64,000 bases of DNA, taken from assembly GCA_041652735.1 (NCBI GenBank), contig JBAZGT010000005.1, positions 457 to 64,456 on the forward strand, written 5' to 3'. This DNA is from Dehalococcoidales bacterium (GTDB lineage Bacteria; Chloroflexota; Dehalococcoidia; Dehalococcoidales; RBG-16-60-22). Position numbers and translations under genes: made by a program. Of the stretch, positions 3,945 through 10,700 are shown piece by piece (the stretch's first letter is position 1; the number at the start of each line of letters is the position of its first letter). The notes beneath the pieces were generated by a model. The model was given only the letters and a program-made list of their open reading frames with translations. It searched no databases and had not been told where the DNA came from.

Positions 3945-4505
3945 TTACCACTCGCGCTTCATTTTCTTGGCGAGCTTTAATACTCTTTCCGGGCTCTTAT
4001 AATTCTGGTCGATGAAAAGCAGGTTATCGCGCTCTGCATCGGAAACCAGCTCCTGGTAGGACTGTTCCGTGTGGGCGGGGCACTGCTCGACGGTGACCAT
4101 GAGGAAAGGCCGGGTAACGCTGCGGATTATCCACGGCCCGTGAATAAAGTCCGCGGGGAGATAGACCGCGTCGGACGTGGTGATAATGTGCTTTTCCATC
4201 TCCGGCCCCAGGCAGAACTCCACCTCGCCGCCCAGGTCCAGCGGGTTATCCGGGTCGGTTCCCAGGTGCATCACCACTTCCGGGTACTTGTGCTTGTGGG
4301 GGCCGTGCCCCATTTGCTCCCAGGAGCTGACGCCGGGGAGTCCCTCGGGCACTTTGGGCACCCAGTGGACGTAATACTGGTGGCTCTGGAAATAGGCGTT
4401 GTCATTGACGGTATCATCGAAGTAGGCGACCACGGCGCCGGTGCCGGGCGGGTTCCAGGGGCGGGGGCCGGAGAGGATGTACTTATCATATTTGTTTCCT
4501 GACAT
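3945..4505 (-). CDS. Cupin-like protein, single domain (window paralog family)
   Basis: The track ORF 3945..4865 is trimmed to the internal ATG at 4503-4505, which is preceded by a GGAAGGAG RBS. Product starts MSGNKYDKYILSG; core PHKHKYPEVVMHLGTDPDNPLDLGGEVEFCLG...VYLPADFIHGP. Confidence 0.6.
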   Translation of the reverse strand: MSGNKYDKYILSGPRPWNPPGTGAVVAYFDDTVNDNAYFQSHQYYVHWVPKVPEGLPGVSSWEQMGHGPHKHKYPEVVMHLGTDPDNPLDLGGEVEFCLGPEMEKHIITTSDAVYLPADFIHGPWIIRSVTRPFLMVTVEQCPAHTEQSYQELVSDAERDNLLFIDQNYKSPERVLKLAKKMKREW

Positions 4506-4680
4506 TTTACGGCTCCTTCCAGTTATTGGTATGATTTTACTCTTATTACGACTATTCCCGCAAAGATTTTCCGGGGAGGGGTGGCTTTGCCTGTATTGCC
4601 GCTTTTGACGCGGCGGGGCCGGATTGCAAAAAAGGGCATCCATTGGTAAACTTAAGCAAACGCATTCTGGAGGGCTTATC

Positions 4681-5532
4681 ATGGAAATCAGAGTCAATAA
4701 ATACGGACCGGACCAGCTCAGCACCAAAGTCTTTTTCAGCGACGAGAGCGGTTTCGCCGTAGCTTCGGTAATAGTCATGGGCAAGAAGGACGCCGCCCTG
4801 ATAGATACGCAGTGGAGCCTTTCCAACGGCCACCGCGTGGCGGCGGAGATACTGGAAACCGGCAAGAACCTGAAAACGATTTATATCACCCACGCCCACC
4901 CGGACCACTACTTCGGGTTGGGGCCAATCGCGGAGGCGTTCCCTCAAGCTAAAGTGGTGGCCCTGCCGGCGGTGGCCAATACCATCAACAAGCAGATGTT
5001 CGGCAAAATAGACCACTGGCGCAACATCATCGGGCCGACCAACGTCCCCACCAAGGCGGTCAATATCGAGCCGCTGGCCCATAACTACTTCGAGCTGGAG
5101 GGGCAGCGTATCGAGATACTGCCGGAAATCATGGGCGACCTGCGGTACAACACGGTGGTCTGGATTCCCTCCATCAAGACCCTCTACGGCAGCGACGTGC
5201 TTTTCAACCAGGCGCACCCCTTTACCTGTGAGATTACCGCCGACGAGCGCAAGCAGTGGGTGAGGGACATAGGGCGACTGGAAAAAATGGGGGCGGAAGT
5301 AGTGATTCCCGGCCACCAGAAGCCGGGGATGCCCTTCGATAGCTCGTCGTTCGGCTTTACCAGGGATTACCTCATCGCCACCGAAGAAGAGCTGGCGCAA
5401 ACGAAGACCACCGGCGATTTCTTTTACGCCATGGCCATGCGCTACCCGGACGCCAACCTGCTTTTCCTGAGCAACGAGATGAACTCCGCCGTATTCAAGG
5501 GCAACCGCGACTGGAACTGGCGGGACGAGTAG
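4681..5532 (+). CDS. MBL-fold metallo-hydrolase
   Basis: HAHPDH metal motif. Start moved to the ATG at 4681 (MEIRVNKYGPD), which has a TGGAGGG RBS. Confidence 0.75.
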   Translation: MEIRVNKYGPDQLSTKVFFSDESGFAVASVIVMGKKDAALIDTQWSLSNGHRVAAEILETGKNLKTIYITHAHPDHYFGLGPIAEAFPQAKVVALPAVANTINKQMFGKIDHWRNIIGPTNVPTKAVNIEPLAHNYFELEGQRIEILPEIMGDLRYNTVVWIPSIKTLYGSDVLFNQAHPFTCEITADERKQWVRDIGRLEKMGAEVVIPGHQKPGMPFDSSSFGFTRDYLIATEEELAQTKTTGDFFYAMAMRYPDANLLFLSNEMNSAVFKGNRDWNWRDE

Positions 5533-7694: not shown

Positions 7695-8123
7695 ATGAAA
7701 CTTTCCACCAGGACGCGCTACGGCACGCGGGCGCTTTTGGAGCTGGCTTTACACCGGGAGGGGGGGCTCGTTTCCCTTAAAGACGTCGCCGGGAAACAGA
7801 ATATCTCGCTGTCCTACCTGGAGCACCTGGTCACGCCGCTGATATCCGGCGGCATCATCCGCAGCGTCAAGGGGCCGAAGGGCGGCATCGCCCTGGTGAA
7901 AAAGCCCGCCGATATAAAGATGATAGACGTGACGCGGCTGCTGGAAGGCTCGCTGGCGCCGGTGGAATGCGTCGACCACCCGGAGGTGTGCGACCGCTCC
8001 GGCAAATGCGTCACCCGCGATGTCTGGAGCGAGGTCAAGACGGCCATGGATAAAGTCCTGGAAAACACCACTCTGGCCGACCTGGCGGCCCGGCAGCAGA
8101 AGAAAGACAAACAGCCGGCTTGA
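7695..8123 (+). CDS. Rrf2 family transcriptional regulator (three-Cys Fe-S type)
   Basis: Starts MKLSTRTRYGTRALLELA with a wHTH. The Cys triad CVDHPEVCDRSGKC resembles IscR/NsrR-type cluster ligands. Confidence 0.85.
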   Translation: MKLSTRTRYGTRALLELALHREGGLVSLKDVAGKQNISLSYLEHLVTPLISGGIIRSVKGPKGGIALVKKPADIKMIDVTRLLEGSLAPVECVDHPEVCDRSGKCVTRDVWSEVKTAMDKVLENTTLADLAARQQKKDKQPA

Positions 8124-8169
8124 AACCGGAAGACGCCATAGGCTAAAATATAAAAAACTGAATATTGCC

Positions 8170-8264
8170 ACTAGGGGAGCTGGAAGGCTGAGAGTTCCCC
8201 CCGATACAATCGGGGGGGGCAGACCCTTTGAACCTGAACTCGGTAATGCGAGCGTAGGGAAGTG
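8170..8264 (+). promoter_or_regulatory. TPP (THI-box) riboswitch aptamer
   Basis: P1 arms CACU...AGUG. Conserved cores CUAGGGGAGC, GCUGAGAG and ACCCUUUGAACCUGAACUCGGUAAUGCGAGCGUAGGGAAG match the THI-box consensus almost base for base. Confidence 0.85.
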
Positions 8265-8271
8265 AACACGA

Positions 8272-8314
8272 GACCGGAAGCAGGCTCCCTTTTAGCTTCC
8301 GGTTTATTATTTTA
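8272..8314 (+). terminator. Riboswitch expression-platform terminator (ACCGGAAGC-loop-GCUUCCGGU plus UUAUUAUUUU)
   Basis: 9-bp stem followed by a U-rich run, immediately before the AAGGAGG RBS of the 8328 gene. Confidence 0.6.
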
Positions 8315-8327
8315 AGGAGGGACCATC

Positions 8328-9386
8328 ATGACGGACATGCCGGAAATCGGCAAAATATCCCCGGCCATTTTCAGCGAGCTTATTTTCCCGCGGCTGGGGG
8401 CGAAGAGCGAACATATCCTGGTGGGGCCGCAGCACGGCGTGGACGTGGGCATCGTGGAAATCGGGGGGAAGGCGGTGTCTTTCACCACCGACCCCGTTTT
8501 TATCGTGCCGGAGTACGGCTGGGAAAGGGCGGCCTGGTTCGCCATCCATATTATAGCGTCGGACTCCGCTACCAGCGGGCTCAAGCCGAAGCTATTGAGC
8601 ATCGACCTTAACCTGCCGATGGACATGACCAAACAGCAGCTGGAGACCACCTGGGAGGTAATCCACCGGGAGTGCGAGAAAATGGGCATCGCGGTGGTGA
8701 CCGGGCACACCGCCCGCTACGAGAACTGCCATTACCCCATGGTGGGCGGGGCCACGCTGGTGGGCGTGGGGGAGATGGACGAATACGTCACGCCTAAATT
8801 CTGCCGGGCCGGGGATAAAATCATTATCACCAAGGGGCCGGCCATCGAAGCTACCGGCATCTTCGCCGCCATGTACCCCAAGGCTATAGAAAAGGAATAC
8901 GGCGCCGCGCTGGCCAAAAAAGCGGAGAGCATTTTTTATAAGATGTCCGTGGTGGAGGACGCTTTGACGGCGGTGAGCGTGGGCGTGCGGGACAAAGGCG
9001 TCACCGCCATGCACGACGCCACCGAATGCGGGGTGTGGGGCGGCCTTTACGAGGTGGCGCAGGCCTCCGGCCTGGGGGCGAGGGTGGAAAAAGAAAAAAT
9101 AGTGGTGGAAGAAGGCGTCACCGAGGTGTGTGAGATGTTCGGCATCGACCCTTACGCCTCCATCAGCGAGGGGTCGCTCATTATCGCCTGCAAGGCGCCC
9201 AAAGCGGACGAAATCGTCAAGGCGCTGGAAAGAAAGAGCATCAAGGCGTCCGTGGTAGGGGAGCTGACCGCGCCGGAAAAGGGCATGGTGCTGGTGGAAA
9301 AGGGCCGGGAAAAGAAGCTGGAACACCCCATCGTGGACCCGTTCTGGCGGGCGTTTTACGGGGCGGGGGAGAAGTACAAGGGGTAG
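8328..9386 (+). CDS. AIR synthase-related protein (PurM/ThiL/HypE/SelD superfamily)
   Basis: 352 aa. N-domain pattern VGPQHGVDVGIVEIGGK..FTTDP and C-domain AMHDATECG..GGL are typical of the PurM-like ATP-utilising fold. Confidence 0.75.
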   Translation: MTDMPEIGKISPAIFSELIFPRLGAKSEHILVGPQHGVDVGIVEIGGKAVSFTTDPVFIVPEYGWERAAWFAIHIIASDSATSGLKPKLLSIDLNLPMDMTKQQLETTWEVIHRECEKMGIAVVTGHTARYENCHYPMVGGATLVGVGEMDEYVTPKFCRAGDKIIITKGPAIEATGIFAAMYPKAIEKEYGAALAKKAESIFYKMSVVEDALTAVSVGVRDKGVTAMHDATECGVWGGLYEVAQASGLGARVEKEKIVVEEGVTEVCEMFGIDPYASISEGSLIIACKAPKADEIVKALERKSIKASVVGELTAPEKGMVLVEKGREKKLEHPIVDPFWRAFYGAGEKYKG

Positions 9387-9425
9387 TTTACAATAGACAG
9401 TTTACAGTTGACAGTGGACAGTTGG
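9386..9425. repeat. Word-repeat array (ACAGTT / GACAGT words)
   Basis: Reads gtttacaatagacagtttacagttgacagtggacagttgg, directly after the stop codon. Confidence 0.7.
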
Positions 9426-9456
9426 GGGAAGGGAGAAAGACCTTTCCCCCTTTTTT
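9424..9456 (+). terminator. Candidate intrinsic terminator (GGGGAAGG-loop-CCTTTCCCC plus TTTTTT)
   Basis: Imperfect hairpin followed by a T6 run, downstream of the PurM-like gene. Confidence 0.45.
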
Positions 9457-9470
9457 AGTAACGACATAGG

Positions 9471-9701: not shown

Positions 9702-10700
9702 TTAAAGCAGTTCCTTGAAGGGGCGGAGCTGGGAAAAGTCTATTACACCGCTTTCCGCGATGTTTTCAATTAACACGCCGGCCTCCACGGCGGCGGCCAC
9801 CGGGTTAAGGCCGCCTATCTGTATCACGCCGATGCGGTTGGGGGCCACGGCTATCTGGCAGAGGGGCTCGCTGGTATTGCCCAGGGCGTAAATGCCCCGC
9901 AGCCCCGCCTTTTTCATCTGCTCTTCTTTTTCCAAAACCAAGTCCCGGGCGGGGGCGGGGATGGTGCGGAAAGCGCCCAGTATTTTACCGCTGCCGGTGC
10001 GCGCCGCCTGTACCACGCTGGTCATTTTGGCCTGGATAAACTGCTCCGATGGGTCCATGGAGGTGCCGGCGTATTCCGTCAGCGCCACAAAGCGCCGGGG
10101 TTTCTCCGCCTTGATTTCCAGCACCCCGCCGAACCTGAACTCGGAGGGGACGCCGGCTTTAAGAAGCACGCCGTTGATGGACGCGCTGCACACGGTGGCC
10201 AACCCCACCTTGCCTTCCGGCACCACCACCGCGCCCAGCTTCTCCCCCTCTTCCGCCGTGGCCACCAGCTCGCTGGCGCAGATGCCGGCCTTGAAAACGT
10301 CCTTCATGGCCGCCAGAGCGTGCTTGAACTTGTCTTTGGCGATGATGGAGGTGTTGATAGCCAGCTGGCCGGTGCGGCTAACGGGGTCGAAGGTGGTGAG
10401 GAAAGCCATCAGCTCCAGCTTATCGCGCACCAGCCCCAATTGCTGCGGAATGAGGGCGTCCTTGACCTCCTGGCGGCCCAACGGCGTAAGGGTACGGCCG
10501 TCCCGCCCGCCGGGCTCGGTGAAGCCGCGCTCATCGGCGATTTTCAAATGATACCTGACACCGCGCTCGCTGAGGAAAACGCCTTCCTTGGCCAGGCGGC
10601 GGGCGATAGTTATCGAACCCAGCGGGTCGGAGGACTCGCTTAAAACTTTGAGGATGGCGATTAGTTTGTTTTCCGCGTCTGCGCCTACAGGCTGGTCCAT
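9702..10700 (-). CDS. nrpR: NrpR-like nitrogen regulatory repressor (wHTH plus NrpR/DUF128-type regulatory domain)
   Basis: 332 aa. The N-terminal wHTH with ERGVRYHLKIADERGFTE..GRDGRTLTPLGRQEV matches my memory of archaeal NrpR. It sits next to the amt-glnK-glnA-nadE block. Confidence 0.7.
   Translation of the reverse strand: MDQPVGADAENKLIAILKVLSESSDPLGSITIARRLAKEGVFLSERGVRYHLKIADERGFTEPGGRDGRTLTPLGRQEVKDALIPQQLGLVRDKLELMAFLTTFDPVSRTGQLAINTSIIAKDKFKHALAAMKDVFKAGICASELVATAEEGEKLGAVVVPEGKVGLATVCSASINGVLLKAGVPSEFRFGGVLEIKAEKPRRFVALTEYAGTSMDPSEQFIQAKMTSVVQAARTGSGKILGAFRTIPAPARDLVLEKEEQMKKAGLRGIYALGNTSEPLCQIAVAPNRIGVIQIGGLNPVAAAVEAGVLIENIAESGVIDFSQLRPFKELL

Follow-up and report, generated by a model that had tools for sequence, protein, structure and literature searches.

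The window analysed here is a 64-kb stretch of DNA (64,000 nucleotides of contig JBAZGT010000005.1, called C5) from a Dehalococcoidales bacterium whose genome is denoted G000. In this window a thiamine pyrophosphate (TPP) riboswitch and an intrinsic terminator precede a gene for a 352-amino-acid protein, P0001, of the PurM/AIR-synthase superfamily (AIR, aminoimidazole ribonucleotide). The family of P0001, a PurM-like and thiamine-linked clade, is called X below. P0001 is a member of a distinct PurM-superfamily clade which is not ThiL, PurM, HypE or SelD, and X is dedicated to thiamine, as four independent links show: riboswitches, fusions, operons and a phyletic gap. X is therefore discussed as a new thiamine-dedicated branch within a known superfamily, and its biochemical role, which is tentatively placed in the thiazole branch of the pathway, is weighed against the alternatives.

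The riboswitch and its transcription unit

The elements of the transcription unit, in window positions, are as follows.

8163..8277, + strand: TPP riboswitch aptamer (THI element), Rfam RF00059
8273..8313, + strand: expression platform, an intrinsic-terminator hairpin, from sequence reading and RNA fold
8314..8321, + strand: Shine-Dalgarno-like AAGGAGGG, from the sequence, 6 nt upstream of the ATG at 8328
8328..9386, + strand: coding sequence of 352 amino acids (P0001), thiamine-linked clade of the PurM/AIR-synthase superfamily, from the open reading frame and its translation
8120..8149, + strand: candidate sigma-70-like promoter, TTGAAA-18 nt-TAAAAT, from a consensus scan (10 of 12 matches, a pattern match only)
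9424..9460, + strand: terminator-like hairpin 3' of the gene, from a scan (10-bp stem with 7 GC pairs, then TTTTTT)

The aptamer is the single Rfam 15 match given by cmscan in the window, on the + strand. It covers the complete RF00059 model (1-105) and scores 63.8 bits where the gathering threshold is 54.3 (E 3.4e-10), the sensor-helix blocks CUGAGA and ACCUGA...GCGUAGGGAA align in register with the consensus structure at high posterior probability, and the sole deviation from the consensus is a longer P3 hairpin. The terminator consists of a 9-bp stem (8273-8281 with 8295-8303), a 12-nt loop and the U-rich tail TTATTATTTT at 8304-8313, and it is present in both the minimum-free-energy and the centroid folds of 8150-8335; a simple terminator scan did not list this leader hairpin in its output. 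The 5' arm of the hairpin overlaps the 3' end of the aptamer match. When TPP is abundant, it would bind the aptamer, the hairpin would form and transcription would halt before the gene, that is, the leader is presumably an OFF-switch acting by termination. A leader starting from the promoter candidate would begin about 10 nt 5' of the aptamer.

The arrangement is like that of other RF00059 riboswitches with an intrinsic-terminator platform in its full aptamer, in the hairpin and U-tract before the Shine-Dalgarno sequence and ATG, and in its thiamine-related target gene. Unlike in those, the target gene comes from a family on which full-text searches of the library used yielded no paper, and we know of no thiamine pathway chart that includes this PurM-like family. 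Because the hairpin at 9424-9460 follows the gene and the next gene (9702-10700) lies on the opposite strand, the PurM-like gene is considered monocistronic. That next gene, convergent with it on the - strand, encodes an archaeal-type NrpR nitrogen regulator (PF01995, 254 bits), and ACAG/GACAGT words are reiterated at 9386-9425, between the stop codon and the hairpin.

The original prediction, made from the letters of the DNA, had placed a THI-box aptamer at 8170-8264, a terminator at 8272-8314 and a 352-amino-acid PurM-fold protein directly 3' of them. The aptamer lies within the RF00059 match and is borne out by a check of the cmsearch type, the terminator fits the hairpin and U-tail at 8273-8313 in sequence and RNA fold, and the protein corresponds to the open reading frame 8328-9386 with its AIRS and AIRS_C domains.

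The PurM-like protein and its family

P0001 contains the Pfam domains AIRS (PF00586, 46.4 bits) and AIRS_C (PF02769, 80 bits), both over their cut-offs, and it remains under every NCBIfam equivalog cut-off: it scores 102 bits with hypE (TIGR02124, cut-off 251.6), 68.3 bits with thiL (TIGR01379, cut-off 184.15), 52 bits with selD (TIGR00476, cut-off 125) and 16 bits with purM (TIGR00878, cut-off 236). The AlphaFold2 (AF2) model, built on a 46-sequence alignment, has a predicted local distance difference score (pLDDT) of 95.4 and a predicted template modelling score (pTM) of 0.93. Foldseek with this model gave HypE, SelD, ThiL and PurM at probability 1.00 with template modelling (TM) scores of 0.6-0.8, the closest solved folds being HypE (TM 0.78) and then SelD and ThiL (about 0.66).

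In a maximum-likelihood tree of 75 sequences, which came from a quick search and has long outgroup branches, P0001 falls into a 50-row thiamine-context clade with a support of 99 in the Shimodaira-Hasegawa-like approximate likelihood ratio test (SH-aLRT), and this clade takes in ThiN-fused, ThiE- or ThiN-adjacent and riboswitch-preceded members. ThiL, HypE, SelD and PurM stand outside a wider family of 70 rows (SH-aLRT 93). P0001, the reference row of the clade alignment A1, carries the invariant or near-invariant residues G37, D39, D55, D79, G126-H127-T128, M228-H229-D230, E233, G235 and G282, and no Cys was found among the invariant or near-invariant columns of that alignment. The conserved Asp, His and Glu together with the high-confidence PurM fold would fit an ATP-dependent phosphotransferase.

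HypE (TIGR02124; PDB 3VYT, 2Z1E) is the top match to P0001 by sequence profile and by structure, which accounts for the label "hydrogenase maturation factor" in public records, where members of X are named either "AIR synthase family protein" or "hydrogenase maturation factor / HypE"; a protein atlas gave generic names only. HypE, however, has a C-terminal Cys tail, whereas P0001 ends in ...GEKYKG without a C-terminal Cys and is under the hypE cut-off, and no hyp genes were found near any X member examined. With ThiL (TIGR01379; PDB 3C9T) X shares the PurM fold (TM about 0.66 to A. aeolicus ThiL), presumably ATP dependence and a thiamine-related substrate, and a tie to thiamine-monophosphate (TMP) synthase. 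Unlike ThiL, X forms a separate clade, co-occurs with canonical ThiL in every X-bearing Dehalococcoidia genome examined and is frequently preceded by a riboswitch, which ThiL rarely has. The remark of the original prediction that the protein does not look like a standard ThiL is thus upheld both by the profile score (68 bits against 184) and by the phylogenetic placement.

Clustered at 50% identity, X amounts to 379 clusters (E <= 1e-30), sister clades without thiamine context included, and the look-alikes in the atlas include archaeal (Thermoplasmatota) and Bacteroidota clusters. The idea that X takes in every PurM-like match of the class at 100-150 bits was ruled out, since these are 25-33% identical, form a separate clade and have no thi neighbours. 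This sister clade was seen at loci L126-L141 (genomes G138, G067, G059, G004 and others), 25-33% identical to P0001 and without thiamine neighbours there. In the family f8 a sister-clade PurM-like protein is present in all eight genomes, all eight of which are without ThiL, ThiC, ThiD, ThiG and Thi4, so the sister clade might serve thiamine salvage in them.

Thiamine genes of the source genome

The assembly of G000 has 48 contigs, 2.3 Mb in all, and is 95% complete. Canonical PurM, PurL, HypE (472 bits), SelD and ThiL (294 bits) are encoded elsewhere in it (PurM and SelD on contigs C16 and C39), and P0001 is consequently a sixth PurM-superfamily paralog. ThiC, ThiD2-ThiE, ThiL and Thi4 are found on contigs C1, C2, C24 and C36, all of them other than C5, in agreement with the earlier statement that no canonical thi gene is nearby. 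ThiD (PF08543), ThiM and ThiG were not found in the source genome. The inventory that the original prediction had suggested thus gives thiL and thiC as present and the role of ThiD as filled by ThiD2: ThiE carries an N-terminal ThiD2 domain (PF17792, 127 bits; C2:38029-39087, locus L016:1054-2112, outside the window), and ThiD2 is a monofunctional kinase which phosphorylates hydroxymethylpyrimidine phosphate (HMP-P) only (PMC12345177). Where other Thi4 enzymes carry the suicide Cys, the Thi4 of this genome carries Ala, which marks it as a sulfide-dependent non-Cys enzyme, and it lies outside the window in a run SAT-Thi4-MnmA-MOSC-FdhD-NadA (C36:14500-19400; L020, L175).

It was also considered that X replaces ThiD as the HMP-P kinase, on the basis that PF08543 was not found in the source genome nor in 15 X-bearing genomes. 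This was ruled out by the ThiD2 domain on ThiE, here and in all 15 X-bearing genomes.

Riboswitches, fusions and operons

A whole-genome search gave two TPP riboswitches in the 2.3-Mb genome, one 5' of thiC and the other 5' of the PurM-like gene. In genomes from three other Dehalococcoidia families (G014, G080, G081) the TPP regulon again consists of thiC and X. Among 80 close orthologous loci in Dehalococcoidia (73-84% identity), 21 have the aptamer directly upstream of X, as found by a single-sequence nhmmer search with the window aptamer, and all seven nhmmer matches that were re-checked with Rfam passed. The distant members of X (33-42% identity), which were collected by an exhaustive profile search, show the same association in the arrangements riboswitch-MFS-X-ThiE (L120, L121; MFS, major facilitator superfamily), riboswitch-methyltransferase-X-ThiE (L123, L125) and riboswitch-X-ThiN fusion (L110, L150). 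Altogether TPP riboswitches stand 5' of X members in at least six separate lineages, so the question raised in the original prediction, whether orthologs elsewhere carry THI-boxes, is answered repeatedly in the affirmative by close and distant members alike.

Moreover, fusions join X to ThiN, a thiamine-phosphate synthase, with either domain first (representatives P0124, P0148 and P0203), and a stand-alone ThiN or ThiE lies 3' of X in G010, G100, G014 and G081. The ThiE proteins paired with X score at or above the cut-off of the thiE equivalog model. These fusions and adjacencies couple X to TMP synthase. A ThiT transporter gene in L105 and an MFS gene in L121 are directly 5' of X, which suggests salvage. 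In L156 a ThiD-ThiN gene lies 3' of X, and in L106 a thiC-thiL pair, whose thiL is bona fide (194.6 bits), is divergent from an X-ThiN fusion; this is the only locus found with thiC beside X, the usual partners being TMP synthases. The contexts of P0123, P0146 and P0166 are short or uninformative.

Two other kinds of gene recur in the X/thiE operons: one encodes an S-adenosylmethionine (SAM)-dependent methyltransferase, whose copies in different lineages share 40-41% identity, and the other a small Trm112-like protein (L123:2093-2794; L125:2008-2712 and 4432-4698; L153:5206-5889; L105:3036-3311). Two of these operons are behind TPP riboswitches. In addition, an FMN (flavin mononucleotide) riboswitch of 100 bits (L110:14879-15023, genome G151) lies 5' of ribD-ribE-ribBA-ribH, about 6 kb from the riboswitch-controlled X-ThiN fusion.

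The thiazole gap in Dehalococcoidia

The distribution of X was compared with that of the thiamine genes in 151 Dehalococcoidia genomes, each at least 85% complete, with at least 270 bits as the threshold for an X ortholog.

ThiC-positive: 81 genomes, X ortholog in 15
ThiC-positive with ThiG: 33 genomes, X ortholog in 0
ThiC-positive with Thi4: 36 genomes, X ortholog in 4
ThiC-positive with neither ThiG nor Thi4: 12 genomes, X ortholog in 11

The lone X-negative genome among the 12 gap genomes is an 89%-complete assembly in about 520 contigs, and some of the gap genomes are complete and in a single contig (1.4-1.9 Mb). All 15 X-bearing genomes have ThiC, ThiD2 and ThiL, none has ThiG, and Thi4 occurs in four. 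The search for ThiM gave no match in any of the 151 genomes. ThiD2, which is present in 61 of the 151, accounts for nearly all ThiC-positive genomes without full-length ThiD, and either ThiD2 or ThiD occurs in 16 of the 16 X-bearing genomes examined. TPK was not found in the five X-bearing genomes tested, so the use of thiamine there would also need a kinase. For the thiazole step that Dehalococcoides-like bacteria lack, X is the only candidate to have come up. A role as an obligate partner of Thi4 was ruled out, as Thi4 is present in only 4 of 15 X-bearing genomes and 32 of 36 Thi4-positive genomes are without X.

X as a putative kinase of the thiazole branch

The other steps already have their own enzymes (ThiL, ThiD2 or ThiD, PurM and PurL), and this, together with the thiazole gap, the regulon and the coupling to TMP synthases and transporters, leads us to read X as the entry enzyme of the thiazole branch. 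We tentatively propose, with somewhat less than even confidence, that X is an ATP-dependent enzyme of this branch, most likely a kinase that acts on salvaged hydroxyethylthiazole, on thiamine or on both. As an ATP-using PurM-fold enzyme X would work with the thiamine-phosphate synthase, ThiE or ThiN, and supply the thiazole-side input of the pathway. It would phosphorylate the hydroxyethyl group of salvaged 4-methyl-5-(2-hydroxyethyl)thiazole and so provide ThiE with thiazole phosphate. Thiamine, which bears the same hydroxyethyl group, may be a second substrate of X; it would be turned into TMP, which ThiL would then convert to TPP. We infer this substrate from the genomic context and the phyletic pattern. 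A TPP regulon of thiC and X fits one switch per moiety, with thiC for the pyrimidine branch and X for the other. Dehalococcoides mccartyi CBDB1 reportedly needs added thiamine, which agrees better with salvage than with synthesis de novo and speaks against a thiazole-forming role of X.

X would thus be a non-homologous counterpart of ThiM (PF02110) and/or ThiK. The gene thiM is widely coupled to thiE in thiM-thiE operons, as it is in the thiD-thiC-thiM-thiE cluster of G151 and likewise in yeast THI6, and X is seen in genomes that lack ThiM yet require thiazole phosphate. Unlike these proposed functional analogues, X has no sequence or fold relationship to ThiM or ThiK, and the X-bearing G151 also has ThiM. 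ThiD2 (PF17792) is a precedent of a small, overlooked, non-homologous thiamine kinase that was brought out by comparative genomics and is fused to TMP synthase, although it has another fold, acts in the opposite branch and occurs beside X in all 15 genomes.

Several observations weigh against a thiazole or thiamine kinase. To our knowledge no PurM-superfamily enzyme phosphorylates an alcohol. G151 has, besides the riboswitch-controlled X-ThiN fusion, the thiD-thiC-thiM-thiE cluster behind a riboswitch and also TPK, so that with ThiM and TPK such a kinase would be redundant there. At the remaining 59 of the 80 close loci Rfam gave no TPP riboswitch, that is, X is riboswitch-preceded at 21 of 80 only. 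The gap genomes come from about five related families and are therefore not independent observations. The position of X after nifS(-iscU), in a sulfur island that elsewhere holds Thi4, is not explained by a simple kinase. Finally, the recurrent SAM methyltransferase and Trm112-like partners are explained by no reading of X, and we know of no methylation step in thiamine synthesis or salvage.

The sulfur island and other functions considered

Upstream of the riboswitch lies one further gene, which is given for context only.

7695..8123, + strand: Rrf2-family regulator gene (CymR/IscR-like), Pfam Rrf2 134.6 bits

Its product scores 132 bits with the NCBIfam model rrf2_super and is under the cut-offs of the CymR and IscR models. 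In related loci this gene (cluster 11) heads the sulfur island that holds X in the relatives. In related genomes Thi4 was also seen within an island Rrf2-CysK-Thi4-SAT-HcyBio-NIL-NifS-MOSC-FdhD-NadA. In the source genome the non-Cys Thi4 is in the island on C36, and X has moved beside the Rrf2 gene and gained a riboswitch. A tblastn search of the whole source genome gave no IscU, and its best NifS match, which lies beyond the window at C5:69020-69682, is only 29% identical; the missing NifS and IscU are either in the unassembled 5% or the lineage mobilises sulfur in another way.

These surroundings raise the alternative that X is a sulfur-dependent enzyme which forms or repairs the thiazole, as a third route besides ThiG and Thi4. 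We regard this as unlikely, although the island keeps it in play: ATP would activate a carbonyl oxygen in the manner of PurM and PurL, a NifS persulfide or sulfide would attack and the ring would close, and PurM and PurL chemistry would suit such a sulfur-dependent, ATP-driven thiazole formation. The narrower version, in which X together with the adjacent NifS cysteine desulfurase makes up an ATP- and persulfide-dependent third thiazole route unrelated to ThiG and Thi4, seems slightly more doubtful again. At most of the 80 Dehalococcoidia loci X is directly preceded by nifS, alone or together with iscU (60 nifS copies), and MOSC, FdhD, MnmA and NadA are downstream. In genomes that lack X (G146, G044, G048, G104 and G131) it is Thi4 that the Rrf2-headed island contains, which makes Thi4 and X alternative members of one island, and X is present in 11 of the 12 gap genomes. 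A 2026 survey found Thi4 genes clustered with the same set of sulfur genes and does not mention X (PMC13325395). The Rrf2/CysK/NifS/MOSC/FdhD/MnmA/NadA island is common to Thi4 in sulfur-relay clusters (PMC13325395, PMC8454699) and to X; on the other hand, the folds are unrelated, X is ATP-dependent by homology, and neither paper mentions it. The nifS link was seen within Dehalococcoidia only, the one further sulfur-gene case being L109, where a ThiN-X fusion is followed by mnmA, and a link confined to one class could be an inherited gene order. Moreover, at L029, L030, L032 and L040 a riboswitch lies between nifS and X, so the two are regulated apart. The source genome is without a close copy of the island nifS or iscU, the distant X members adjoin transporters and thiE rather than sulfur genes, and the conserved columns of the clade lack Cys.

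The functions put forward in the original prediction, a non-orthologous thiamine-phosphate kinase, a kinase of the pyrimidine moiety and a thiamine-dedicated AIR synthase, fare less well. ThiL is the sole characterised thiamine enzyme known to us in the PurM superfamily, and X could be a second, TPP-regulated TMP kinase whose reaction comes right after that of the TMP synthase it is paired with. Being fused to ThiE or ThiN, or lying beside them, would in that case bring two successive reactions together, and X members do score 68-91 bits with the thiL model. However, canonical ThiL is present in the source genome and is found with X in each of the 15 Dehalococcoidia genomes, the X-ThiN fusion in L106 has a bona fide thiL (194.6 bits) beside it, the tree sets X apart from ThiL, and both the thiazole gap and the transporter neighbours would be left unexplained, which makes this isozyme improbable. 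What keeps the role alive is the order of G151, where four of the eight X-bearing genomes (G151, G169, G170 and G171) are without the divergent ThiL of their relatives and have the X-ThiN fusion as their best ThiL-like match; in G151 all canonical kinase roles are covered except that of ThiL. Yet the other four of the eight have ThiL with X, and TPK is present in 23 of 23 genomes of this order, so that the loss of ThiL may leave no gap if TMP is first dephosphorylated to thiamine. The case for a kinase of free hydroxymethylpyrimidine (HMP), which would restore the pyrimidine salvage lost with the monofunctional ThiD2 or replace ThiD, is that the 15 X-bearing Dehalococcoidia genomes rely on ThiD2, with full-length ThiD in none of them, and that the X-ThiN fusions resemble ThiD-ThiN fusions, a known archaeal arrangement seen here in L156. 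But it is that very ThiD-ThiN gene which X adjoins, X stands alongside full ThiD in G151, ThiD2 is on ThiE in the 15 genomes and occurs in 61 of 151 against 15 with X, and the thiazole gap would stay open; such a function is very improbable. Least credible of all, and close to being dismissed, is the AIR synthase feeding ThiC. The PurM-like fold, the restriction of the TPP-regulated units of the genome to thiC and X, and the thiC-thiL pair divergent from the X-ThiN fusion in L106 would agree with it, but the score with the purM model (16 bits) is far from its cut-off (236), the genome already encodes canonical PurM and PurL, and outside L106 the partners are TMP synthases and transporters and not thiC. 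The probability left over goes to a function outside all of these readings. Of the earlier interpretation, which is partly supported, the riboswitch, the PurM paralog outside ThiL and the thiamine-dedicated family stand and the three functions are improbable, and the thiazole side, on which the proposed kinase would act, had not been considered in it.

Implications

The pathways of thiamine synthesis and salvage are considered almost completely known, and yet ThiD2 and the candidate salvage gene OarX emerged from evidence of a like kind. If X is a kinase, it would be the first PurM-fold enzyme known to us that phosphorylates an alcohol; if the sulfur-dependent alternative is true, it would bring a new sulfur-insertion chemistry into the PurM superfamily, and as a third route it would fill the thiazole gap of Dehalococcoides-type genomes, where thiC, thiD2-thiE and thiL are present without a known thiazole synthase or thiazole kinase. 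In either case, assigning X would correct the widespread mis-annotation as HypE or hydrogenase maturation factor. It would also close a hole in the predictions of vitamin B1 auxotrophy for Dehalococcoidia, which matter for bioremediation consortia and for vitamin cross-feeding in groundwater.

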